From: Candidatus Aminicenantes bacterium
GTDB lineage: Bacteria; Acidobacteriota; Aminicenantia; Aminicenantales; JAFGBC01
Assembly (NCBI GenBank): GCA_963702005.1
Contig: OY969696.1
Span: 3,104,001 to 3,168,000 of the forward strand
Direction: 5' to 3'
Length of the DNA: 64,000 nt
The notes beneath the pieces are model-generated. The model worked only from the letters and a program-made list of their open reading frames with translations. It ran no database searches and was not told where the DNA came from. Shown one piece after another: positions 2,719 through 17,584 of the stretch (the first letter of the stretch is position 1; every line of letters starts with the position of its first letter). The position numbers were made by a program, and so were the translations under genes.

Positions 2719-3651
2719 TTATGGCTGACACTCTGCGCATATGGACCTGAAAAGCGTAGTACTCAGATACCGGTCTCCACGGTCAGGCAATATCACGACT
2801 ATTGTGCCATGATGCATGTCCCTTGCCACATGCAGTGCCCCTGCCACCGCTGCGCCACTTGACATGCCAACGAACAGACCTTCCCTCGTGGCAAGCAACC
2901 TCGCCATTTCAAAAGCCTCATCATCATCAACGGTTATCTTCTCGTCCAAGGCCCTGGGATTATAGATTCCGGGAACAGCAGATTCTTCCATGTTTTTCAG
3001 GCCCTGAATCTTATGCCCCTTTTTTGGTTCGACTCCGATAATTTTTACTTGTGGCTTTTTTTCTTTCATGTATCTTCCCACGCCCATGAGCGTTCCCGTC
3101 GTTCCCATGCCAGCAACAAATATGTCAATTTCTCCCTCGGTCTGGGAAAATATCTCCGGTCCCGTTGTTTCATAGTGGGCAAGGACATTGCTCTCGTTCT
3201 CGAATTGATTGGGCATGAAATACTTTTCCGGTTCTTCATTGAGAATTTCGTGGGCTTTCCTGATAGCCCCGTCCGTTCCTTCCCCGCCCGGAGTGAGCAC
3301 GACTTCCGCGCCAAAAGCTTCAAGAATCCGGCGTCTTTCTAAGCTAACGCAATCAGGCATCACAAGCCTGACTCGATATCCCTTAGAAGCTCCTATCATT
3401 GCAAGTGCGATGCCTGTGTTTCCCGATGTGGATTCGAGGATTGTTTTGTCTTTGTTAAGTTCTCCTGATGCTTCTGCTTTTTTCACCATGCAATAAGCAG
3501 GGCGGTCTTTGACCGAGCCTCCGGGATTGCATCCTTCCAGTTTGCCATAAATCTTAGTCTTCGAATTTATGTTTAAATTAACCAATTCGGCGAGTGGCGT
3601 GTTACCGATGGTATCCAATACGCTGTATTTTTGCATTTGCCATTTACTCAT
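2719..3651 (-). CDS. cysM: Cysteine synthase (PLP, CysM/CysK family)
   Basis: IGNTPL, NPGGSVKDR, STSGNTG, GMGTTGT, IQGLKNM, DRGDRYLST. Confidence 0.92.
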   Translation of the reverse strand: MSKWQMQKYSVLDTIGNTPLAELVNLNINSKTKIYGKLEGCNPGGSVKDRPAYCMVKKAEASGELNKDKTILESTSGNTGIALAMIGASKGYRVRLVMPDCVSLERRRILEAFGAEVVLTPGGEGTDGAIRKAHEILNEEPEKYFMPNQFENESNVLAHYETTGPEIFSQTEGEIDIFVAGMGTTGTLMGVGRYMKEKKPQVKIIGVEPKKGHKIQGLKNMEESAVPGIYNPRALDEKITVDDDEAFEMARLLATREGLFVGMSSGAAVAGALHVARDMHHGTIVVILPDRGDRYLSTTLFRSICAECQP

Positions 3652-5042
3652 CTTCTATTTTCTGTAATTTCTCTTATTGCCACGACCGCCTTGTAAGCAT
3701 CTTCCACTGTGTTATAAAACGCGAAGGAAGCCCTGACTGCTCCCGGAATCATTAACGGTCCCTTGGGAAAGCCAACATTCAGCAAACCCGTCCTAATTTC
3801 ATGAGCCAATCTCGGCGCGCCCAAAAGCTGTGAAGTATATATGTGCGCACAGAAGCATCCATCCCTCATGCTTATGCCATGCCTGTCTAATTGCTGCGCA
3901 AACTCTTCGTGATTTCTTCCCATGGCGGCATTGTTAAAGGTCACTACTGCGGTTCTGTTTTCAAACTCCCTGGGACCGTAAATTTTTATGCCCCTTATTT
4001 TCCGCAATTCCCCGACGAAGTATTCTCCGAGTTCCCCATCATGCTTTTCAATTTTATCCATTCCGATTCCTTTCAGATAATCGACTGCGAAGCCCCATTC
4101 TATTGCGCCTTCCAAATCCTGGGTGCCTGGCTCAAACCTCTTATGGCCGCCTGCGTAAGCGGTAAACCATTTCGAGACCAAATCAACCGCACTTCCGCCG
4201 CTAATGTTGTTGCCTACGTACCTTTCGCTTCTTTTATTGACGAAAATCGCTCCGATGCCCATGGGTCCGTACATCTTATGGGAGGAAATTCCTGCAAAAT
4301 CCACGTCTAAATCATCCAAATCAAGCGGCATGTGCCCGGCTGACTGGGCCATGTCGAGATATACGAATCCTCTGTCTCCCAATATTTCTCTGATTTCTTT
4401 CACAGGATTTATTGCCCCGGTGACATTCGAAACGTGGACAAGATTGAGCAATATCTTCCCCTTTCCCCTTTTCGATACAGCTCTTTCAAGACAATCCAGT
4501 CTTAATCTTCCCTCTGGCAGAGAAACGGGGATAAAAAGAATCTCTGCCCCGGCTCTTGCGGCAATATTCCTTGCCGTCAATATCTGCGAATTATGCTCCA
4601 TGTCCGTAAGGATAAGAGTGTCCCCTTTATCAAATGGAAATCTGGCTGCTATAAAATTTGACGTATCGGTTGTTCCTCCAGTAAAACCAATAACGTAGTT
4701 ATCCGCGTTGAAAAATTCCCGTATTTTTTGCCTCGCTTCTTCGTTTCTTCTCTGATATTCAGCCGCTTCCCTGGAATTCTCTGAATGATTGCTTCCTCTT
4801 ATGTGAGTCTTTCTGTATTCGTGCATCCTGTCTTTGACTGATTGGGGCTCCTGGCTTGTTGCCGTATTGTCCAGATAAATCCTGCTCAATGCATCGAACA
4901 AAGGAAAATCTTTCCGTCTGATCTCATGAACATCCGGAAGCAGTCCTGGGAACAAATCAAATTCCGCCCCTTCCGCAAGAATCTTAGGCACGTCTAAGAG
5001 CCCATCTCTCCCCACGTAATTTTCCAATTTTCTTCTCAGCAT
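3648..5042 (-). CDS. sufS: Cysteine desulfurase, SufS/group II
   Basis: YLDNTATS, EHNS, SSHKMYGPMGIG (PLP Lys), RDGCFCAH (catalytic Cys), RASFAFYNT; ATGA overlap with cysM. Confidence 0.88.
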   Translation of the reverse strand: MLRRKLENYVGRDGLLDVPKILAEGAEFDLFPGLLPDVHEIRRKDFPLFDALSRIYLDNTATSQEPQSVKDRMHEYRKTHIRGSNHSENSREAAEYQRRNEEARQKIREFFNADNYVIGFTGGTTDTSNFIAARFPFDKGDTLILTDMEHNSQILTARNIAARAGAEILFIPVSLPEGRLRLDCLERAVSKRGKGKILLNLVHVSNVTGAINPVKEIREILGDRGFVYLDMAQSAGHMPLDLDDLDVDFAGISSHKMYGPMGIGAIFVNKRSERYVGNNISGGSAVDLVSKWFTAYAGGHKRFEPGTQDLEGAIEWGFAVDYLKGIGMDKIEKHDGELGEYFVGELRKIRGIKIYGPREFENRTAVVTFNNAAMGRNHEEFAQQLDRHGISMRDGCFCAHIYTSQLLGAPRLAHEIRTGLLNVGFPKGPLMIPGAVRASFAFYNTVEDAYKAVVAIREITENRR

Positions 5043-5139
5043 CTTGTGTCTCGCCTGCTCTGATACCTTTGTATTTTTGGCTTCATTCGCCCGCGCATTT
5101 TTCTATTTAAAAGCTTTCACTCTAACTATGAACTGGTTC

Positions 5140-5169
5140 AATTGTCGAGTATGCGTATAATAGACAACT
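5140..5169. repeat. Dyad recombination site L (AATTGTC-GAGTA-TGCGTA-TAATA-GACAACT)
   Basis: Imperfect palindrome around a 6-bp spacer; inverted counterpart at 5838-5867. Confidence 0.6.
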
Positions 5170-5193
5170 GAAACGGCTAAGGATTTCGGGACT

Positions 5194-5817
5194 ATGGCAT
5201 CAAAAGAAGCGCTTCTATCTCGAAGCAGAGAGCCTCAGGTTAAGTATCTGGAAAAAGAAGAGGTCTACCGGCTATTCATGTCTATAACCGGAAAGAATTA
5301 TCGCGACAAGGCCATGTTCGATTTGATATACCGGCATGGACTGCGAAGAATTGAAGCAACCTGGCTTAGGAAAGACTGGGTACACAATGGCCGGATTTGG
5401 ATTCAGCGGGCAAAGAACGGCGTTTCTCAGGAGTACAATCTCCATCCTGCCTCGGAAAAATTGCTGGAATTGTATCTGGCGCAAAGAGGAGAAGACGGCA
5501 ATCCGTACCTCTTCGCTAGCCGGGAAAGCGGAAACGCCCGCCCGATTTCAAGCGGTCTGATTTATTACCTTTTCCAAATATACGCGGCCAGAGCGGGTAT
5601 CGCCCCCGAGAAGCGTTTCGTTCATATTCTTAGGCACTCCATTGCCGTCCATTTATTGAATGCAGGATGGGATCTATGCGACGTCCAGGACCAGCTCGGT
5701 CAAAAGGACATACGAAATACGGCAATCTACGGAAAGGTCTCGAATAAAAGACGAGACATGCAGTTTCAGAAACTGCTCAAATCAAACGAGATCGCCGACA
5801 CTCTGTCGGGGACTTGA
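5194..5817 (+). CDS. Small tyrosine recombinase (FimB/FimE-like, catalytic domain only)
   Basis: HGLRRIE (R), RAKNG (K), HILRHS, LGQKDIRNTAIY (Y); 207 aa. Confidence 0.9.
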   Translation: MASKEALLSRSREPQVKYLEKEEVYRLFMSITGKNYRDKAMFDLIYRHGLRRIEATWLRKDWVHNGRIWIQRAKNGVSQEYNLHPASEKLLELYLAQRGEDGNPYLFASRESGNARPISSGLIYYLFQIYAARAGIAPEKRFVHILRHSIAVHLLNAGWDLCDVQDQLGQKDIRNTAIYGKVSNKRRDMQFQKLLKSNEIADTLSGT

Positions 5818-5837
5818 AAACTATCGGGGCATTATCG

Positions 5838-5867
5838 AGTTGACGAATCTACGCAAAAACGTTAACT
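5838..5867. repeat. Dyad recombination site R (AGTTGAC-GAATC-TACGCA-AAAAC-GTTAACT)
   Basis: Same 7-5-6-5-7 geometry as site L; spacer TACGCA is the reverse complement of TGCGTA. Confidence 0.6.
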
Positions 5868-6015
5868 CAAGTCAAATATATTAAATAATCAACTTTAAGG
5901 GGCTTTTTCCGTTTGACATTTTATCATATTACAATTTATCATCTCTAGCGATGGGACGAGGCAAAATTGGCGCGGGAACGCTCATCTAGGCGGCACAGAA
6001 AAAAAGGAAAATAAT

Positions 6016-6948
6016 ATGGATTTTATAATGCTTTTGGCCACAGTCTTGTTTGTTAGTACTTCGGTATGGTTATGGCGTTTCGCTATGGCCCAGATGATTA
6101 TGCTATCACTGGATACATCGCTCGCTCCTAATCAGAATATTGCTGCATCACAAATGCCCAACCTAGGGTGGTATAGATCTATACTAAATGTCATTAAGAA
6201 ACTGTATCGCAATAAAGTTTATTTATTATTGAAAACATTTCCGTTCATAATATTTATTGGAGGCAATATTTATTTTTTAATATTCAAAGGCCACCTTTGG
6301 ATGTCAAGTTCTAACTCGATTTTGTCATTATTAGCATTTTCAATACTCGCTTTTGTTCCTAACCCTTTTAAAGATCGAAAACAAGATCGCAAGATTGCAG
6401 ATTTAGAACTAAAGACATTTAAGAAATATAAAGAAGAAGAAACTGTGCGATATGTTGGCCAGGCTATGTTGCCCAAAAAGGTTTATGAAGAGGATTCACA
6501 TAATATAACTGTCAATCTAAAGCCTTCGTTCAATATGCCTTCGAAAGATCATAATAAATTTTGCGTTCGAGATAACAAGAGTGGCAAATCATTTGTTATA
6601 CAAATTGTTAAAAATAGCAGGTTGAAGCAATTTATTGAGATTGAGCTTTTAGCTGCTGGATTTGAAATTGATGGAGAAAAGAAGCAGCAACAATCTTTTA
6701 GTATGAAGACATTGTCCTACTGTTGGAACTGCTATTTCCCAAACTCAGGCAATCACACGCTCAGTTTAATTATAAGACTGTTAAGCCCATCTAAAGCCAT
6801 TGAAGTTGGAGCCATACAACATAGCATAAAGGTTGCTAAACTGGACAACCTAACAAAACGTCAGGTTTGGTTAATCGCATCGCTAGCTGGTTTAGTATCG
6901 GGTGGGCTAACAATTGCTGAAGTATTCCGTCGGCTGGGCTTATGGTAA
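6016..6948 (+). CDS. Hypothetical membrane protein
   Basis: 310-aa low-GC ORF, N- and C-terminal hydrophobic helices, AAGGA SD, TTGACA at 5913. Confidence 0.6.
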   Translation: MDFIMLLATVLFVSTSVWLWRFAMAQMIMLSLDTSLAPNQNIAASQMPNLGWYRSILNVIKKLYRNKVYLLLKTFPFIIFIGGNIYFLIFKGHLWMSSSNSILSLLAFSILAFVPNPFKDRKQDRKIADLELKTFKKYKEEETVRYVGQAMLPKKVYEEDSHNITVNLKPSFNMPSKDHNKFCVRDNKSGKSFVIQIVKNSRLKQFIEIELLAAGFEIDGEKKQQQSFSMKTLSYCWNCYFPNSGNHTLSLIIRLLSPSKAIEVGAIQHSIKVAKLDNLTKRQVWLIASLAGLVSGGLTIAEVFRRLGLW

Positions 6949-7505
6949 AAAGCAAATTGAGCTTTCCCCCGTTGATTGGACAATAAAGAGGAGGTTTGAA
7001 GGTGCATTCTCGGCCCGCCCGTCTTGATTATTCTGGCCATTCTGATGCCCAAAAGCAATTTTTCGCGGCAGCCTAGAAAAATCGGCTTCACCACTTGACC
7101 CAGGAACGACGATCTCGACCAGGTCCATATCAAACCCTTGGCTACAAATCGGCCTTTTGCTTTTCTGGGAGGCCAAAATCAACCGCATGTGGATAGAATC
7201 ATCGCTCACCTCAAGCTGACGTTCTTCGCCGAAAAACCTCCTCCGCCCCGGGTCGCTTATCAAGAAATTTGAGTGGCCACCGAAGCCGGCAGTGAATATT
7301 TTTCATGGTCCTCTCCTTGCCCAGCGGTGAGGTCCGGGTAATTTGCGGCACTTTATGCGCCTCGGATGGCTTTGCGGACATACCTCGTGCCCCCAAGCCG
7401 TTCTTGACATCCTTTTTTGTTATGATTTTTACTTGCTCACCATGGTTATATAAGAAAATGGGAGCGAAAATGCGCCCTCGGCCAGTGCCGCCGAAAACCA
7501 ATTTC

Positions 7506-9008
7506 TTATATTTTCAATCGTTCAAGGCGACGAGCTAGCAATTTAAGAGAAGGTTCCTTTATCTTAAGCGCTTCATTGATAGCCTTCTGACGTAAATTAT
7601 CTGCATTGGAACTATTAGCTAACAATTCCTCTCGAGCGAGGTAAATCATAGCACGAGCCTTTAGCCATGGCTGTGATTCTTTGTAGGCGATTTGTATAGC
7701 CTTATGATATAAATCTCTTCCTTCATTTGGCCTACCTGAACGATATTCTAACAACCCAGAAGTAGCCAAAGCGCAAATTTTAGTTGACAAGGGACAGCGG
7801 CTTAAATCAATTTTCGATAATGCTTTCTTAGCTTCCTCCAGTTTGCCTAGGTGGATAAGACTAAATGCAAGGTTATTTAATAAAGTCGGCTCCTTAGGAA
7901 TAATCCTCAGTGCGGATTCGATTATCTTAGTACCGGATATGTGGTCCTCAAATATTTCACTTGTTAAAAAAGACATATGAATATAAGGTCTTCTAGAAAA
8001 TGGTTCATCAGAAAGCCAAAATCGAGAATGTTCAAGAGATTTTTTCCATTTTCCTTCAAAGTAGGTCATTAAGGCTTTAGCTTCAAATGCACGAATTGGA
8101 TCAAATTTCTTTTCAAGCAGATCCTCAATCGTAACATACCTAGTTGCCCAAACAGCCTGAGCCAATGCATTATCGTTTGGTTTCTGCAATGAAAAAGCGA
8201 AGAGCTTTTTTGCCTTCTTGGAATTTCCTTTCCAGAGTTCCACACTTGCTAAAGCACTAGACAATTCACAAACTTGAAAGGGATCAAGCGATCTGCCATC
8301 AACAATTCTCATGCCAGGCTTTATAAGCTTTGAGCTCTTTTCAAGAATCGAACTAATAGCAATTTCTGTTGCCATGAGCCATGGATCATGCTTAGTTATC
8401 TCCGCGTTTCTTAAAAGATAGTGTGCCTTTTCAGGCTGGTTTAGATGAAGCTCAAGGCGAGCTGCACTTCTTAGAATGTAACGATTTAATGGAGCAAGAT
8501 AGTATGCAATTTGCATTGCTTTTTTGGCCTGCTCCTGTAAACCAAGTATTGTGTACAATCTTGCTAGATCTGCCCATACAAATGCATTGCGTGGTTGATC
8601 AATTCTTTTCTTTTTCATCCGCCTTATTGGCTCATATAAGTCACGTCTATCTGCGGAGATTGGAGCTTGCAAACTATCTTCTAAAGGCATAGGAATCCGC
8701 AGCACCTTGGCTGCAATCGACTTTGCTGCAGTGGAGGAGCCTGAATCTGGCTCTAAAACAAACTTTGCAGCGTCAATAGCCAACTCTGGATGCCCCATTA
8801 CATAAGCAACTCCGAGAAAATCAGTTGCGAACAACAACGTGCGATTGTTGGTCCACTCCTCCTTTTTTTTTAGTATAAATGAGTCTGGCGGCAATGCAGA
8901 AACTAATCGAGTCTCTGTGGGATCTAATTCTCCTGATTGAAGCGCTAGCTGAAATTCCCGCCAGCGAGGGACTATCCTGCGTCGAGTGTTTTCAATATTA
9001 ACTGCCAT
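7506..9008 (-). CDS. TPR/alpha-solenoid protein
   Basis: TPR-like motifs (WADLARLYTILG, LLNNLAFSLIHLGKLEEA); overlaps the kinase stop. Confidence 0.75.
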   Translation of the reverse strand: MAVNIENTRRRIVPRWREFQLALQSGELDPTETRLVSALPPDSFILKKKEEWTNNRTLLFATDFLGVAYVMGHPELAIDAAKFVLEPDSGSSTAAKSIAAKVLRIPMPLEDSLQAPISADRRDLYEPIRRMKKKRIDQPRNAFVWADLARLYTILGLQEQAKKAMQIAYYLAPLNRYILRSAARLELHLNQPEKAHYLLRNAEITKHDPWLMATEIAISSILEKSSKLIKPGMRIVDGRSLDPFQVCELSSALASVELWKGNSKKAKKLFAFSLQKPNDNALAQAVWATRYVTIEDLLEKKFDPIRAFEAKALMTYFEGKWKKSLEHSRFWLSDEPFSRRPYIHMSFLTSEIFEDHISGTKIIESALRIIPKEPTLLNNLAFSLIHLGKLEEAKKALSKIDLSRCPLSTKICALATSGLLEYRSGRPNEGRDLYHKAIQIAYKESQPWLKARAMIYLAREELLANSSNADNLRQKAINEALKIKEPSLKLLARRLERLKI

Positions 9009-10065
9009 GGCTTATGCTTGCTAATAATCCTAATTCGGCACGTTTACCAAGGCGATCAAAAAGAGAGATATATCGCTCAAGGCTGTAGGGATTTGAATGA
9101 CCCCGCCGATTATATGGATGGCCTCGTAATAGCGGATCAGGCTCGCAGAGCTGCTCTATTGTCCTTATCATCTCTTCTTGGATTTCTGGAGGAATCGATT
9201 TTTTTATTTCTTCTAATGCTTTCCCAAACGCATCCCTTACATAAGGTAGAACCTGCCGATAATCTAGCGGCCATACTTCCCAAATATGTTTTGGATGAAG
9301 TTTGTCTCGAAGTATAGCCGTCATCTGGATTCCGCAAAAGAAAAAAACCACCATGCTACCCATGAGATAAAGATCGCACCCATATCGCCGACATTTCCAA
9401 TCAGGTTGCATTTCTCCGTAAAGTAGTTCTGGAGGAGCATAAGATTTTGCTCCTGGTATGCAATATTTGGAGAAAGGAGAAGTAACTTCTAGGCGTTCAG
9501 CTCGCCCCAAGTCTGCCACCTTCATTTGATCTCCCTTAAAAACGAGTACATTTGATGGCTTTAAATCTTGATGAGCTATGCCATGACCATGAAGCTGCCA
9601 GAGACCAACGGCGATATGATGTAGGGATTTGAGTATCCATGCGAGGTCGAAAGCTTGTGCTGCTTTGGGGTGAGAGCGAATATCCCCTTCAGCCAGATCG
9701 AAGATTAAGAACTGCACTGCGTAGGCTCCTCCGGGCAGCTCTATCTTTCCCTCATCCAAAGCTGTGACGACACGACTCATCTTTTTTTCTCTGCAACGGG
9801 CTAGGATATCTCTCTCAAAGTTGAACGCTTCGGTCATCGCTTGAAATGCTCTTGCTGGATCTGGGGACTTGAGCGCCTCTGAGAAGTCTAATGCCTTCAG
9901 GAAAGCTTTTTGTCCTGCTGAGTTTTCAATGATATAACCAACTGAGAAACTCATTCCTGTGGCTCTCTTTGGACGGATAAGCTTTTCTATTACTTTCCAA
10001 TCATCATTTACTATTTGACCAGTTAACTCGTGAGCTGGATTCTTAATCGATATGTTATTTTTCAT
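8998..10065 (-). CDS. Hanks-type Ser/Thr protein kinase
   Basis: AFLKAL, HQDLKPSN, ADLGRA, YAPPE, DLYLMG. Confidence 0.92.
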   Translation of the reverse strand: MKNNISIKNPAHELTGQIVNDDWKVIEKLIRPKRATGMSFSVGYIIENSAGQKAFLKALDFSEALKSPDPARAFQAMTEAFNFERDILARCREKKMSRVVTALDEGKIELPGGAYAVQFLIFDLAEGDIRSHPKAAQAFDLAWILKSLHHIAVGLWQLHGHGIAHQDLKPSNVLVFKGDQMKVADLGRAERLEVTSPFSKYCIPGAKSYAPPELLYGEMQPDWKCRRYGCDLYLMGSMVVFFFCGIQMTAILRDKLHPKHIWEVWPLDYRQVLPYVRDAFGKALEEIKKSIPPEIQEEMIRTIEQLCEPDPLLRGHPYNRRGHSNPYSLERYISLFDRLGKRAELGLLASISHGS

Positions 10066-10176
10066 CGGACATAAATCTCATAAGTAATAAGATAACATGA
10101 TGATGTGATGCTCCTCCTCCCGACGTTTATAATAGACTTCCGGTTGGAAATTTATTTTTAGGAGCTGCACAGATGA

Positions 10177-10205
10177 ATTATGCCGGTATTGACCATCATC
10201 GTCAA
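10177..10205 (-). promoter_or_regulatory. sigma70-like promoter of kinase-TPR operon
   Basis: TTGACG-N17-CATAAT on minus strand. Confidence 0.55.
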
Positions 10206-10332
10206 TATTAGAAGTTCTTCATTATATGTCCAGCTAATGATAACGTTTGAATATCAGTATTATCCGCATCTCTTCTACGTCCAGTTTAATACGCTGCAAT
10301 TCTTAATTCCCATCTATTTCTTGGCGGTCTTT

Positions 10333-10992
10333 ATGCCTAAAAAGCTTGAGCAATTTGATACGGAGAAGGATGAGTGGTACAAACAGCCGAGGCTTTACAT
10401 AGATACGAAGAGCCTTGCCTATTCTCTTTACGAGGAGGGAACGGAGTTTAAATCCTTCCTTTCCAGGGACCTATCGAAAAAATTCGTCGATGGGCTTGAT
10501 TCGCTTCTCGACAACGGGAATAGCGAGAAAAAGGAAAGACTGAAGAAGCATAACGGCAACGGCTCTGACATGGGCGCGCTGCTAAAGTCGAACGGCAAGA
10601 TTAGGAAGCCGGTTATAAGCTTCTTCTCTGATAAGGCGCGGGTCCTTAGGGAAGAAATAGAGAAAATAAATCAGGACATGGAATCCAGAAAGGTAATACA
10701 CAGAGAAACGCAGCAAGACGTTTTTGCTGATTCGAAAGAGATCAAAAGGCTTCTCCAAGAAATCTCGCTGTATTCGCCTGGGACGAAACACTCGATTGAC
10801 CTGCGACGCATCGAGCTTGAGCGGGAGATGCTCGGCCTGCGGAAGGAATTGAGAATTTCGGGTCTCTCACTATGGAAAGATATCGTAATGCTCCGCCGCG
10901 AGCTCAGAGAAATAATCTTCGAATACCAGGCGCTAAAGCGCATGGCGGAGCTGGTCGAGAACGGAGGCGGGGCGCATGGCGTTTCAGGATGA
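10333..10992 (+). CDS. Coiled-coil hypothetical protein (partner of downstream ATPase)
   Basis: Charged helical ORF; ATG 10333 preferred over 10180; overlaps ATPase start. Confidence 0.7.
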   Translation: MPKKLEQFDTEKDEWYKQPRLYIDTKSLAYSLYEEGTEFKSFLSRDLSKKFVDGLDSLLDNGNSEKKERLKKHNGNGSDMGALLKSNGKIRKPVISFFSDKARVLREEIEKINQDMESRKVIHRETQQDVFADSKEIKRLLQEISLYSPGTKHSIDLRRIELEREMLGLRKELRISGLSLWKDIVMLRRELREIIFEYQALKRMAELVENGGGAHGVSG

Positions 10993-13021
10993 GATCGAAT
11001 CCCTTTTTCGCAAGCTTAAGCCGGTTCTGGGGAAGGATATCGATACCCTGTGGCTGGCTTACAATACTCAAACCGACCCGCGTTCGAGGGCAGAGATCGT
11101 CGGGATTCTGTTTTCCCTAGCTTCAAAGTATCTTGACGAGACATACGACAAGAAAGTTCTTCTAAGCCTGCCGGAGAAGGACAACATTTCTGGGGAATAC
11201 GAGCTCGGAAGGGTCGTTTACGGAGACCAGGAATATCATCCCTTTGGCCTACGCGAGAACGAATGGCTGAGGCACGTCGGCATATTCGGGACGACCGGCT
11301 CAGGGAAAACAAATTGCGCCTTTGTTCTTCTCTCTGTCCTACAAAAGATGAAGAAGCCTTTCCTTATCTTTGACTGGAAGAGGAATTATCGAGATCTTGT
11401 CGTCCTCGGCGATTTCTCCAGCCTGAAAATCTATACAATTGGCCGCGATACCTCTTCTCTCTTCTTCAATCCCCTGATTCCTCCTGCAGGGACGAAGCCG
11501 CAGGAGTGGCTGAAAAAGGTGATTGAGGTCATGTGCCATGCTTATTTCCTCGGCGAAGGCGTAGCTTTCCTCCTGCAAAAAGCGATTGACATGGCATATT
11601 CAGACTTCGGAGTTTATTCTGATTCGCCAGACGAATATCCGACTTTCAAAGACGTGCTTGCAATTCTTGAAAAGATGGAGGTCAAAGGCAGGAAGGCGCT
11701 GTGGATGGACTCGACGCTTCGAACGCTTGGCGTACTCTGCTTCGGCGAATTTGGCCGCGTCCTGAACGTGAGAAAGCCTTATCCGCTTGCCAATTTGTTG
11801 AAGGAAAATGTGATTCTGGAGCTCGATGCGCTGACGAATTCCGACAAGACGTTTTTCATCGAGGCGCTGCTGCTGTGGATTCACCATTACAGGCTCTCGG
11901 AGGGCGAAAGAGAGGTTTTCAAGCACGCGATTGTCATTGAAGAAGCTCATCACATCCTGCTTCGTAAAAAGCAGGAAATGACAGGAACGGAAGCGATAAC
12001 GGACATCATCCTTCGAGAGATCCGTGAGCTCGGCGAAGCGATAATCCTGATTGACCAGCATCCATCGCTTATTTCTCTGCCGGCGCTTGGAAACACATAC
12101 ACGACCATTTGCTTCGGCCTGAAGCACAGGGCGGACATGTATACGATAAGCGAATCATTGCTTCTCGAAAAGGACCAGGTCGATTTCCTGGGCCAGCTTG
12201 AAACGGGCCTGGCCATCGTCAAGCTCCAGGGCCGCTACTTCAAGCCCTTCCTTGTGCGCTTCCCTCTGTTTCCCATACGGAAAGGCGTCGTTTCCGATTC
12301 CGACCTTCTGAGGCGGAATGGAAGTCATTTGCAAGAAAGCGAGGTTGTCAGGCTCAAGCGCGGCCTCGACGGGCTTGTCAGGTCGCTTGAAGGTTTGGTT
12401 AATAAGGAGGGGGCGGAGGTTGTTTTAACTGAAGATGAGAGGCGATTCCTAGCGGACATCGCCAGAAATCCGATATCGGGCGTCGTTGCACGATATGCGA
12501 GGATAGGGATAAACAGATATCAGGGAAATCATATCCAGGGAAAGCTCCTTGAGAAAAAGCTTATTTCCTGGAGGCCTGTTGCCACCAGGAAAGGCCGCCT
12601 AAAGGTGTTCGTGCTGACGGACGAGGGGAAGAAAGCGATTCCCGACGTTCGCGTCGAAAAGGTCTTCCATAAGGCTGGAAGTTTCGAGCATGAGTCGGCG
12701 AAGCTTAAGGCCGGCGAGCATTACAGGCGGAAAGGCTACGCCGTGACCTACGAATATAAGCTCCCTGGCGGGCGGGCGGTGGACGTCGTCGCTGAGAAAG
12801 ACGGGAAGAGGATAGCGATAGAAATTGAGACGGGCAAAAGCGACTCGCTTTATAACATCAGGAAGGATCTGGAGGCGGGGTTTGAGGAGGTGCTGGTCAT
12901 CGCACTCGATAAAAGAACGAAGGATTCAATTGAGCGGGACACGAATAATCTCGATATTACTTTCCCACATCGCAAAAAGGTGATTATTGCGTCTGAAACC
13001 GTTGTTCAGAACTTAATCTGA
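10976..13021 (+). CDS. HerA/VirD4-like (DUF87) ATPase fused to wHTH and PD-(D/E)XK nuclease-like domain
   Basis: GTTGSGKT, FDWKRNY, IVIEEAH, LIDQHP; C-terminal VDVVAEKDGKRIAIEIETGKS. Confidence 0.85.
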   Translation: MAFQDEIESLFRKLKPVLGKDIDTLWLAYNTQTDPRSRAEIVGILFSLASKYLDETYDKKVLLSLPEKDNISGEYELGRVVYGDQEYHPFGLRENEWLRHVGIFGTTGSGKTNCAFVLLSVLQKMKKPFLIFDWKRNYRDLVVLGDFSSLKIYTIGRDTSSLFFNPLIPPAGTKPQEWLKKVIEVMCHAYFLGEGVAFLLQKAIDMAYSDFGVYSDSPDEYPTFKDVLAILEKMEVKGRKALWMDSTLRTLGVLCFGEFGRVLNVRKPYPLANLLKENVILELDALTNSDKTFFIEALLLWIHHYRLSEGEREVFKHAIVIEEAHHILLRKKQEMTGTEAITDIILREIRELGEAIILIDQHPSLISLPALGNTYTTICFGLKHRADMYTISESLLLEKDQVDFLGQLETGLAIVKLQGRYFKPFLVRFPLFPIRKGVVSDSDLLRRNGSHLQESEVVRLKRGLDGLVRSLEGLVNKEGAEVVLTEDERRFLADIARNPISGVVARYARIGINRYQGNHIQGKLLEKKLISWRPVATRKGRLKVFVLTDEGKKAIPDVRVEKVFHKAGSFEHESAKLKAGEHYRRKGYAVTYEYKLPGGRAVDVVAEKDGKRIAIEIETGKSDSLYNIRKDLEAGFEEVLVIALDKRTKDSIERDTNNLDITFPHRKKVIIASETVVQNLI

Positions 13022-16119: not shown

Positions 16120-17373
16120 TTAGTCGTTGTCAAGAACGGCGTCCCGTCCAGGCACGATAAAAGCCAAGACGCTCAGAATGAGCTCTCTGTTCGGGTCGTC
16201 CGGTTGACGAAGGACAAAGCGGAATTCCGTCTCACCCGTCCTGCCTACGTCTCTCTTATAGCAAGCATGAGCCCGGACGACATCGGGTATTTTCGCTAAA
16301 ACGTCGCTAAACCTCTTCCCCCGGTAAAAAAGAATGATCGCCGTCTTAGTGTCCCTCCAGCTTGCGTAACCGAGGATTTGATCGATGGTTTCGGAAAAGG
16401 CTTTTTCGCCTTTCCAGAATTTGCACTCTGCGATGAAGGCATTCCTGCCTTCGTGCCTGATAAGGATGTCGGTTTTGCCGCTGTAATTAAATGTTTCGCC
16501 CGTTGCGGCGCCTTCATATTGGGCGTTGAGCTGGATGAGAAAGTGCTGGCGCAAATCTTCTTCCTTCATGCCCTCAAAAGCGCTCGGACTCCTTTCAAGC
16601 ACCAAAGCCATGTTCTTCACGATGGACAGAATGTTTTCGTATTCGGCCATTTCCAGGGCGGGCTCTGGAGCAAACGGCTTGCTTGTTGCCGTCGGCCTTG
16701 CTATTCTTGGCTTTCTCTTTACCTCAGGTATAGCATACGTCCTAGGCATGTCTTCACGCTTCCTGACGGGAATGCCAAGTTTCTCTACCAAATCGAGGTC
16801 CTTTAGTATCTTCCGCTTGCGCAGCCTGAATGCCTCCCGTATGAAAGGCTCAAACTCTTTGTTGAAGCCTTCTATGTTGCTCCTGACCCAGCCAAGATAT
16901 TGCTGAATGTCGCTGATCCTTCTTGATATCTCTTTTCCCAGCTCCTCGGCGTTCGGTTCAGTTTGCTGATAAACGAGGCACACTTCCTGGCCGACGACTT
17001 CTCCTCGCGGAGGGCTCATGGTGTAGGGGCTCGGAGTATATTTAAAGAACGTGCCGTCTCCGCTGAACGGAACCGAAACAGTCAGCGTGACGCCTTTGAC
17101 ATAGCACGGACGGCTCCTGTCAAAAACGGCTCTCATCCTGTCCTGGCTGACGTCGATGTCCACGTCGGAGGGCGCAGAAATGCACTTGTTATCCGGGTCG
17201 AGGATTGGGGGTTCGATCGAATACTTGTCCGCAAAATGCCTGACGAAGTCTTCCTCGCTCGAATTCAGAAGAGAGTTCGTCTCGATGGCCTCGACTTCTT
17301 TCTTTGCATGCTCCTTGACCGCCTCAATATAATCCCTCAATTCCCCATGGCCATAAAATAGAAGCTCCTGCAT
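16120..17373 (-). CDS. Protein with C-terminal PD-(D/E)XK restriction-endonuclease-like domain
   Basis: EEDLR...GKTDILIRHEGRNAFIAECKFW; ATG at 17373. Confidence 0.75.
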   Translation of the reverse strand: MQELLFYGHGELRDYIEAVKEHAKKEVEAIETNSLLNSSEEDFVRHFADKYSIEPPILDPDNKCISAPSDVDIDVSQDRMRAVFDRSRPCYVKGVTLTVSVPFSGDGTFFKYTPSPYTMSPPRGEVVGQEVCLVYQQTEPNAEELGKEISRRISDIQQYLGWVRSNIEGFNKEFEPFIREAFRLRKRKILKDLDLVEKLGIPVRKREDMPRTYAIPEVKRKPRIARPTATSKPFAPEPALEMAEYENILSIVKNMALVLERSPSAFEGMKEEDLRQHFLIQLNAQYEGAATGETFNYSGKTDILIRHEGRNAFIAECKFWKGEKAFSETIDQILGYASWRDTKTAIILFYRGKRFSDVLAKIPDVVRAHACYKRDVGRTGETEFRFVLRQPDDPNRELILSVLAFIVPGRDAVLDND

Positions 17374-17584
17374 TAGATGCCTCTTGCCTAATCTCATTTG
17401 AAAGATAGCAATATAAACGATGCGAGTCAATTTGAAACATGCTGCATTCCCGTCTTCAGATAGGTGCCCCGGATGCCGGCGGCAACTTTATAAACCCGCT
17501 TGACCATAATTTAATCAATTATTCTCGCTAGCGTTCCGCAAGGGACGTTAGAAAATATCCGCTATAGCTTGACGAGGGCTTGGA

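Follow-up and report, generated by a model that had tools for sequence, protein, structure and literature searches.

Invertible DNA switches are known mostly from host-associated bacteria, where a short promoter segment flips beside a recombinase gene and surface structures are controlled. In the fim switch of Escherichia coli (fimS, FimB/FimE), tyrosine recombinases of about 200 amino acids without a separate N-terminal DNA-binding domain are encoded outside a 314-bp invertible element, which contains the whole promoter. Here we analysed a locus in a 64,000-nt stretch of the genome of a Candidatus Aminicenantes bacterium (contig OY969696.1, positions 3,104,001 to 3,168,000; hereafter the window), in which a short tyrosine recombinase gene lies between two inverted sites, next to an operon encoding a SufS-like aminotransferase and a cysteine synthase family protein. 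Like fim, the locus combines a short recombinase, inverted core sites, an orientation-dependent promoter and recombinase expression that would be tied to orientation, as in the orientational control of FimE. In contrast to fim and to the commonly described switches, it is the recombinase gene that flips here, and the promoter or its -35 element stays fixed outside; the neighbouring cargo consists of metabolic genes, and the module occurs in uncultured bacteria of environmental origin.

Several other systems resemble this module in part. In Salmonella, Hin belongs to the serine recombinases, requires Fis and an enhancer, and has its promoter within the invertible segment. The module described here shares with Hin/hix a recombinase inside its own segment and an inversion that would couple and uncouple a promoter and a flanking operon, and differs from it in using a tyrosine recombinase, sites of 12-6-12 geometry and an outside promoter. 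In FLP/FRT of the yeast 2-micron plasmid and in Cre/lox, one tyrosine recombinase likewise acts on paired inverted arms whose short asymmetric spacer determines the direction of recombination, and the inverted FLP sites flank a segment that includes the recombinase gene and also permit cassette exchange; this likeness is one of layout, and unlike FLP/FRT the module is chromosomal and bacterial, with a 6-bp spacer, 12-nt arms and no plasmid amplification. dif sites have a 6-bp central region, and the single-recombinase Xer systems (XerA, XerH and XerS with dif-type sites) provide both the best sequence matches and a dif-like core; unlike them, the module encodes a protein without the N-terminal domain, has a pair of inverted sites at each gene, is present twice in the genome and plays no part in dimer resolution. 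At the flgB switch of Clostridioides difficile, Rho terminates transcription in an orientation-specific manner. According to PMC5903667, the RecV switches of that species (flgB, cwpV) have an inverting segment between a fixed upstream promoter and the operon, with control after initiation, as would be the case here; RecV, however, is encoded elsewhere and serves many switches, whose segments of 150-300 bp are non-coding. That paper also cites Hin as the example of a recombinase inside its invertible segment, and PMC9881135 treats recombinases ‘near or inside’ invertible regions as textbook knowledge. The latter also describes a Lactobacillus rhamnosus BREX pglX locus whose recombinase is proposed to be co-transcribed with the operon in one state, which would thereby be unstable. 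The self-limiting logic proposed below is the same, but at pglX a coding sequence is altered and the repeats lie in genes, whereas here the core sites are intergenic and the segment holds the recombinase only. For gut invertons, a passage of PMC11892184 calls nearby invertases ‘generally non-regulatable’ by the inverton owing to their orientation, and layouts in which orientation sets recombinase expression would thus appear uncommon. In the open-access literature that we searched, no account was found of this family or of a recombinase-only tyrosine inverton behind an outside promoter. By the comparisons run here, the module would work like a fim- or Hin-type switch with Flp- or Xer-like simple sites and is a member of none of these systems.

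Both sites at the window recombinase are 30 bp long, with 12-nt arms around a 6-bp spacer (12-6-12), and site 2 is inverted relative to site 1 (Table 1). This is as an earlier sequence-only reading of the window had described them; its coordinates, the identical geometry of the two dyads and the asymmetric spacer TACGCA in opposite orientation (TGCGTA in site 1) were all correct. The same site pair recurs around homologous recombinases, where that reading had proposed to look for it. The genome (4.31 Mb, one contig) carries at 129 kb a 71%-identical recombinase paralogue flanked by the same two dyads, with spacers TGCATA and TATGCA that are exact reverse complements. Of 433 candidates from a protein search, 201 were relatives at E 1e-20 or better; they measure about 200-230 amino acids throughout, and their source names cover several phyla. 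When 45 aligned family members were used as query, a metagenome scan returned 19 loci. Seventeen of these (L015-L031) are 70-88% identical to the recombinase; the two distant ones (L032 and L033, 28% and 25% identity) were left out of all counts. Flank alignments placed both sites in every metagenome locus long enough to reach them, giving 18 complete pairs from the window, the paralogue and 16 complete metagenome loci (L031 is 5'-truncated). Spacer 2 is the reverse complement of spacer 1 in all 18 pairs, ten of which are of type TGCGTA/TACGCA (window, L015-L023) and eight of type TGCATA/TATGCA (paralogue, L024-L030); some loci are near-duplicates (L017/L019, 99.85%; L021/L022, 100%; L017/L018, 98%).

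All four arms conform to one common half-site. Among 60 half-sites, position -12 is A in 59, positions -10 and -9 are T in all 60, position -11 is G or A in all 60 and position -6 is C in 49, which gives an approximate consensus toward the spacer of A-R-T-T-R-N-C-G followed by a T-rich stretch. With a matrix from which the own genome had been left out (48 half-sites from 12 other loci), the four sites at the two recombinase genes ranked 1 to 4 in the 4.3 Mb (32.3, 32.1, 28.2 and 26.6 bits), compared with 23.4 bits for the next match in the genome and a maximum of 24.4 bits in the reversed-genome control. A locus-scan matrix detected, at 18 bits or more, exactly two sites per locus in the 16 complete metagenome loci, likewise two in the paralogue region and two in the entire 64-kb window, and one site in the truncated L031; this matrix had been trained on 14 of the scanned loci, with L018, L019, L022, L023 and L031 outside the training set, though L019 and L022 are near-duplicates of training loci. 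A strict pattern (ARTT-N8-TGCRTA-N8-AACT) matched three times in the 4.3-Mb genome, at both window sites and at site 2 of the paralogue, and not at all in the reversed control.

Within the window alone, the site pair is not above chance. The sites have about 20 of 30 positions in common (counted by eye), a repeat search on 4900-6100 did not include the pair in its output, and local alignment of the upstream flank with the reverse-complemented downstream flank (200 shuffles) gave z values of 1.6 for the window and -0.5 for the paralogue. The same flank-alignment test was negative on nine homologues of about 40% identity from named genomes, a result that is uninformative because the test lacks power even on the window and its close relatives. 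An integron-like or shufflon arrangement was considered and rejected, as no extra sites above the control were present in the genome, the 17 metagenome loci, the paralogue region or the 64-kb window; attC-like extra sites were likewise found in none of the loci nor in the genome. A weak dyad with a different spacer lies outside the window at genome position 3423905 and, at 23.4 bits, scores below the control maximum of 24.4.

Two of the metagenome loci differ by an inversion. The interiors of L015 and L016 are 95.5% identical over 704 nt on the same strand, and the flank to the left of the L015 cassette aligns in reverse complement with the flank to the right of the L016 cassette, with 95.8% identity over 427 nt to the contig end. 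These alignments overlap by exactly the two 6-bp spacers (L015 935-940 and 1633-1638; L016 469-474 and 1167-1172), and the SufS-like gene is divergent from the recombinase in L015 and co-oriented with it in L016. Judged from these alignments, L016 is the flipped form of L015, with breakpoints inside both spacers, and the inversion that the sequence-only reading had simulated, including the co-orientation of the recombinase with the SufS-like gene, was thus met in nature. The other flanks of L015 and L016 match over 38 nt only, which indicates related strains with different right-hand context, not one population. The locus family hence displays three of the features by which an inverton is recognised, namely inverted sites with identical crossovers (18 of 18 pairs), a dedicated recombinase at the locus and both orientations, the last between related strains, and we consider it highly probable that the inversion system is real.

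Identity also breaks sharply at the spacers between loci in the same orientation. Compared with L022, the window is 95.3% identical in the SufS-like gene, 90.3% in its leader and 100% (47/47) up to spacer 1, past which identity drops to 61% and 75% inside the cassette. Compared with L017, the interior is about 80% identical, the sequence just outside spacer 2 is 95%, the next 119 nt (window 5897-6015) are 100% and the following 310-amino-acid gene is 96% identical. The synonymous divergence (dS) of the recombinase gene between the window and L015 or L017 is 1.3-1.7. Near-identical flanks around so divergent an interior show that the window interior was exchanged at the two sites. A comparable step separates the paralogue locus from L030, with 84% identity across module and left flank against 97.9% on the right-hand side. 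As shown by comparison of these loci, the sites are genuine, exchange occurs within the spacers, both orientations exist in nature and whole interiors have been replaced; the sharp breaks show that sites of this kind shape genomic islands in nature.

Table 1 Coordinates of the module and neighbouring features in the window
Feature	Position	Strand	Remarks
Portable module, about 790 bp	5105-5896		Left outer block, site 1, recombinase gene, site 2, right outer promoter block
Left outer conserved block	5105-5139		First 8-mer (5105-5112) is the palindrome ATTTAAAT in most relatives
Core recombination site 1	5140-5169	+	Outer arm 5140-5151, spacer TGCGTA 5152-5157, inner arm 5158-5169
Core recombination site 2	5838-5867	-	Inner arm 5838-5849, spacer TACGCA 5850-5855, outer arm 5856-5867
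Short tyrosine recombinase, 207 amino acids, catalytic domain only	5194-5817	+	Only gene within the invertible segment
-10 hexamer TATAAT	5156-5161	+	Last 2 nt of spacer and 4 nt of inner arm; moves with the cassette
Junction promoter reading leftward into the cassette	5846-5875	-	-35 TTGACT (5875-5870) fixed outside; as-found -10 TAGATT (5851-5846)
Promoter-like site TCGACA-18-TAGAGT (9/12)	5119-5148	-	Toward SufS-like gene; orientation-independent; overlaps outer arm of site 1
Promoter-like site TTGACA-18-TATCAT (11/12)	5913-5942	+	For the rightward 310-amino-acid gene at 6016-6948; outside the module
SufS-like class-V aminotransferase (cysteine desulfurase-like), 464 amino acids	3648-5042	-	First in leftward operon; directed away from the cassette
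Cysteine synthase family gene (CysK/CysM subfamily)	2719-3651	-	Second in leftward operon; overlaps upstream gene by 4 nt
Possible 20-codon upstream open reading frame	5036-5098	-	In the 110-nt leader; stop overlaps the SufS-like start codon

The invertible segment measures 698 bp and contains the recombinase gene and its -10 element alone. The extent of the whole module was read from loci with unrelated flanks, to which similarity begins at 5102-5105 (L017, L019, L026) and ends at 5880-5896 (L022, L015, L020, L026). The ATTTAAAT 8-mer marks the left boundary, 35-47 nt from site 1, and in some loci separates the ribosome-binding site of the left gene from its start codon.

Outside site 2, promoter sequences face leftward into the cassette. 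We scored promoters as matches to the sigma-70-like consensus hexamers out of 12, so that strengths given here reflect consensus scoring alone. As found, the junction promoter reads TTGACT-18-TAGATT (9/12), and inversion in silico turns it into TTGACT-18-TATAAT (11/12) at the same place, reproducing the join between the outside -35 and the inside -10 with an 18-nt spacer that the sequence-only reading had reported. This composite design occurs in five of the 15 scored loci (window, L015, L016, L017, L019), in which a TTGAC[T/G] -35 element starts 20 nt from the spacer and the -10 element is made of the last two spacer bases and four bases of whichever inner arm adjoins. With an antisense recombinase the resulting -10 is TAGATT (9/12), and with a sense recombinase it is TAAAAT or TATAAT (10-11/12); TAAAAT stands in most group-A relatives where the window has TATAAT, and L016 displays the strong form TTGACG-18-TAAAAT ahead of its recombinase as found. 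In the ten remaining scored loci, TTTACA-16-TAnAAT forms a complete outside promoter, whose -35 begins at a distance of 47-48 nt from spacer 2 and whose -10 varies only at positions 3 to 5. By consensus matching, the composite junction promoter is confirmed; it is confined to this subfamily, however, and the found state does not lack a promoter. The recombinase is antisense to the outside promoter in 17 of the 18 complete pairs.

On the other side of the cassette, the left gene is directed away from it in all 15 loci with a left flank and starts 48-119 nt from spacer 1. A scan from 60 nt inside the cassette to the left-gene start codon detected no leftward sigma-70-like site of at least 9/12 in 11 of 13 loci. 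The operon itself differs between loci. A SufS-like gene comes first in the window and in L015, L016, L021, L022 and L029, followed in the window by the cysteine synthase gene; LuxE comes first in L017, L019 and L027, followed by LuxC where the contig extends far enough; a small uncharacterized protein precedes a methyltransferase in L024 and L028, and in L026 precedes an N-acyl amino acid synthase and a B12-radical SAM enzyme; and the paralogue locus has a metallophosphoesterase. The left flank of L030 resembles that of the paralogue locus by DNA similarity, and its partial open reading frame (ORF) has no Pfam match. The SufS-like/cysteine synthase pair is therefore one of at least four left-operon kinds, and the switch would be generic, with no special tie to sulfur metabolism, which weakens the sequence-only reading on this point.

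Its gene labels ‘FimB-like’, ‘sufS’ and ‘cysM’ also had to be relaxed, all three falling below curated cut-offs. The SufS-like protein belongs to Pfam Aminotran_5 (270.2 bits) and scores 274 against the SufS model TIGR01979, whose cut-off is 475. The cysteine synthase gene matches Pfam PALP (264.9 bits), the NCBIfam cysKM subfamily (394.4 versus a cut-off of 344.15) and the cysK equivalog (355.7 versus 350.95), and remains at 366 bits below the cysM cut-offs of 394 and 413 (TIGR01138, PRK11761). The genome holds six further paralogue matches for the SufS-like class-V protein and two for the cysteine synthase, and the two genes of the window are thus accessory copies; no sufBCD context was seen in the list of ORFs of the window. 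The 20-codon upstream ORF remains open with substitutions in L022 and has no counterpart in L015 and L029, whose leaders are shorter.

These features suggest how the module could work. The catalytic-domain-only recombinase would bind the four half-sites, which form the two inverted 12-6-12 core sites, and strand exchange in the identical 6-bp spacers would flip the 698-bp segment. The promoter fixed outside site 2 and firing leftward into the cassette would be the main candidate source of transcription for the left operon. In the found state, its transcript would run antisense to the recombinase, with the weaker TAGATT as junction -10 in this subfamily; in the flipped state, the -10 would become TATAAT and the recombinase would be read in sense, at the head of a unit that also holds the operon. 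In keeping with such a unit, no locus has a terminator-like hairpin between the recombinase stop codon and site 2. The flipped state would then be expected to revert, because the recombinase is transcribed together with the operon and the state destabilises itself, and the found state, in which the recombinase is silenced, would be the resting state, which fits the 17 of 18 pairs with the recombinase antisense to the outside promoter. The operon would accordingly alternate between low expression as found and high expression after a flip, not strictly between off and on. Such an effect of orientation on the operon is plausible on sequence grounds, with the balance of argument level. The fuller statement that 5105-5896 is one copy of a portable, self-contained inversion module that also regulates the left operon stands, in our estimate, about an even chance.

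Beyond this, we tentatively propose, as a possibility on the unlikely side, that the loci form a new family of ‘flip-gates’, each a recombinase-only invertible segment with a near-consensus promoter fixed outside it on one side and an accessory operon lacking its own promoter on the other. The resting recombinase would be silenced by antisense transcription, a rare flip would place recombinase and operon in one translated transcript and cause a transient, self-terminating pulse in a subpopulation, and the same two sites would let whole cassettes swap between loci and strains. If so, a stochastic pulse generator would have been recruited by metabolic operons (SufS-like/cysteine synthase, LuxE/LuxC, N-acyl synthase/radical SAM) in uncultured sediment bacteria, with the modules at the edges of defence islands. 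Being compact (about 790 bp, one small protein and 30-bp sites directed by a 6-bp spacer), the module is in any case a candidate for a self-limiting toggle and for cassette exchange.

A number of observations weigh against a module that inverts and thereby regulates the left operon, or narrow the evidence for it. The two spacer types track two protein clades, so that all of the spacer covariation is a single compensatory event and not many. L016 is the only flipped locus found, and its far flank is unlike that of L015 beyond 38 nt. In the ten of 15 relatives with a complete outside promoter, this promoter needs no inside -10 and is unchanged by orientation. In the window, a 9/12 promoter already faces the operon as found and the fixed left flank holds another such site (TCGACA-18-TAGAGT, also 9/12), which is present in two of the 13 scanned loci, the window and L022, which have this flank in common. 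The ON/OFF switch of the sequence-only reading thus stood as a gain from 9/12 to 11/12 at the junction on flipping, and fell as a silent OFF state. No conserved intrinsic terminator was present in either direction across the loci: the single minus-strand hairpin of the window (5227-5210) is not common to other loci, and a hairpin in four group-B loci falls within conserved coding sequence. Nor is there a conserved antisense ORF, the longest stop-free stretches being 53-104 amino acids and different between loci. Finally, the window recombinase has Gln170 at the position aligned with the His of the XerD LLGH motif, which is His in 44 of 45 aligned relatives, and a near-invariant Trp three residues before it (position 167) is also Gln. 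Polarity on an untranslated antisense leader is offered as an idea only for how orientation might alter output: the C-over-G bias of the antisense RNA (1.1-1.5) equals the ordinary gene-strand bias in the window and so gives no evidence for Rho sites, and an Rfam search of 4900-6100 returned no match at E up to 1.

The module might instead be mainly a recombination platform, used for shuffling or replacing island DNA by cassette exchange at the two sites or by large rearrangements between modules, with local inversion as a non-regulatory by-product. The mosaic breaks at the spacers fit such a role, with flanks of 95-100% (L022 on the left, L017 on the right) around an interior of 75-80% and a dS above 1.3, as does the step from 84% to 97.9% between L030 and the paralogue locus. 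The module also stands beside at least four unrelated left operons and many right-hand inserts, including candidate defence genes, neither it nor a 13-kb region was found in two same-genus genomes, and its outside promoter is orientation-independent in most loci. Shuffling partners are scarce, however, as each locus has exactly two sites and the genome no solitary ones, and the two modules of this genome have different spacers. Without a transcriptional role, it is also hard to explain why the left gene always points away from the cassette, mostly without a promoter of its own, and why a near-consensus outside promoter is kept and aimed through the cassette. We regard such a platform as rather unlikely.

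The second alternative concerns the recombinase itself. The protein belongs to Pfam Phage_integrase (PF00589; 90 bits against a cut-off of 27.1, residues 18-184 of 207), and by its sequence scores it falls short of every curated family cut-off tested: XerA-type NCBIfam (97.3 bits versus 220), XerD (76.5 versus 329.6), XerC (75.9 versus 335), the FimB/FimE-type models PRK09870 and PRK09871 (45.0 and 47.5 bits versus 221 and 222) and the integron integrase TIGR02249 (56 bits versus 265, with residues 133-186 alone matching). Its best solved relatives are Xer proteins, aligned over the C-terminal domain only, as in the Xer-like structure 4a8e (E 4.9e-16; recombinase residues 16-189 to structure residues 102-271). 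When aligned to the XerD motifs, Arg51, Lys74, His144, Arg147 and Tyr179 are in place, the catalytic assignment following the commonly described XerD residue roles. As a separate observation, 15 of the 45 family members have Lys in place of the second catalytic Arg (of His-x-x-Arg; window position 147), a replacement unusual among active tyrosine recombinases, with intact ORFs and conserved sites.

Given the Gln at the position of a catalytic His, it might be that the family inverts while this copy has become a locked relic with an impaired recombinase, its cassette fixed as found unless the paralogue acts in trans. The window protein is alone among 45 aligned relatives in this change, the neighbouring near-invariant Trp is altered as well, and the paralogue retains both the His (position 170) and the Trp (position 167). 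In other tyrosine recombinases, substitutions at this His lower activity and do not always abolish it. The remaining signature residues (Arg, His-x-x-Arg, Tyr) are present here, and both window sites score as high as any in the family. The gene, moreover, shows no sign of decay: ORFs are intact, pairwise dN/dS (nonsynonymous over synonymous divergence) in the family is 0.04-0.07, pairs with the window lie at 0.04-0.05, and dN to the nearest relatives (0.067-0.070) is at the level between other family members. The window recombinase may thus be slow or dependent on help, but by these measures it is not decaying, and a locked relic seems rather improbable. Because of the His-to-Gln change, we give about even odds that this particular copy still flips efficiently by itself.

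The sites could also be attL and attR of an integrated mobile element that carries this recombinase as its integrase, with excision and integration in place of inversion. The gene does border a variable island rich in defence genes, a HerA/FtsK-like ATPase among them, and its distribution is patchy: 30 relatives contained no close homologue, with none at E 1e-15 in two same-genus genomes (92% and 83% complete), and of 400 other genomes of the phylum four had a match at E 1e-20 or better, all at 42% identity or less. Genome contigs gave no match to the single-protein query, and 44 loci, all of 50% identity or less in the best segment, to the alignment query. An element of this kind is nevertheless very improbable. 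The spacers are inverted, not direct, in 18 of 18 pairs, the recombinase gene is alone between the sites, and L015 and L016 differ by an inversion. Nor were close relatives found in mobile DNA, viral contigs giving no recombinase match and all plasmid and phage matches lying below 40% identity among the matches listed; these include Salmonella plasmid genes annotated as tyrosine-type DNA invertase, at about 35%. That the site resemblance arose by chance near an ordinary integrase gene, as the single-locus z values (1.6 for the window, -0.5 for the paralogue) and the silent repeat search would allow, is refuted by the 18 conserved pairs, the spacer covariation, the top-four ranking in the genome and the breakpoints at the spacers.

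Five more distant homologous loci (L008, L009, L012, L013, L014; about 38-41% identity), drawn from two genomes of the phylum, were also aligned. Three of them, in genome G385 (L009, L013, L014), with recombinases about 40% identical, have a shared dyad of their own just upstream of the gene, and none of the three revealed a clear downstream partner dyad.

In terms of gene content, the module sits at the edge of a variable island. A 13.1-kb region was not found in two same-genus genomes or one same-order genome, bar short non-coding matches in the former. To the right of the module, the window encodes on the plus strand (10180-13021) a 270-amino-acid protein without family match and a 680-amino-acid HerA/FtsK-like DUF87 ATPase. 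This pair lies right of the module in nine loci, adjacent to it in L025, L028 and L030 and separated by variable inserts elsewhere, and a paralogous pair is present at the paralogue locus (L007 11496-15060), the protein without family match being 220-270 amino acids long. Its function might be linked to that of the module; it might also be a marker of a mobile or defence island. PADLOC candidate defence genes were detected on the minus strand at 7506-10065 and 16120-17430 (PDC-M71B, 459 bits; PDC-M71A, 403; PDC-S54, 516). The PDC-M71 pair forms an insert between the module and the HerA-like pair and is not present in L017, and L025 has a PDC-S54 homologue after its HerA-like gene.

Another insert and several matching non-coding stretches were noted near the two modules. 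At the paralogue locus, a 2.45-kb insert (L007 8976-11428; genome 129975-132428) lies exactly between the module and its 220-amino-acid gene; it is not present in L030 and holds a periplasmic-binding-domain gene and a gene for an uncharacterized protein of 387 amino acids. In the window, three non-coding stretches (5905-6017, 7183-7509 and 10090-10207) are 66-88% identical to several contigs of the same-genus genome G401, in which the genes remain unmatched, and these stretches are not repeated in their own genome, bar one partial copy of 7183-7509. DUF3800 genes are often found in variable islands, and a plus-strand gene at 1732-2607, just past the cysteine synthase gene, encodes a DUF3800 protein (34.6 bits).

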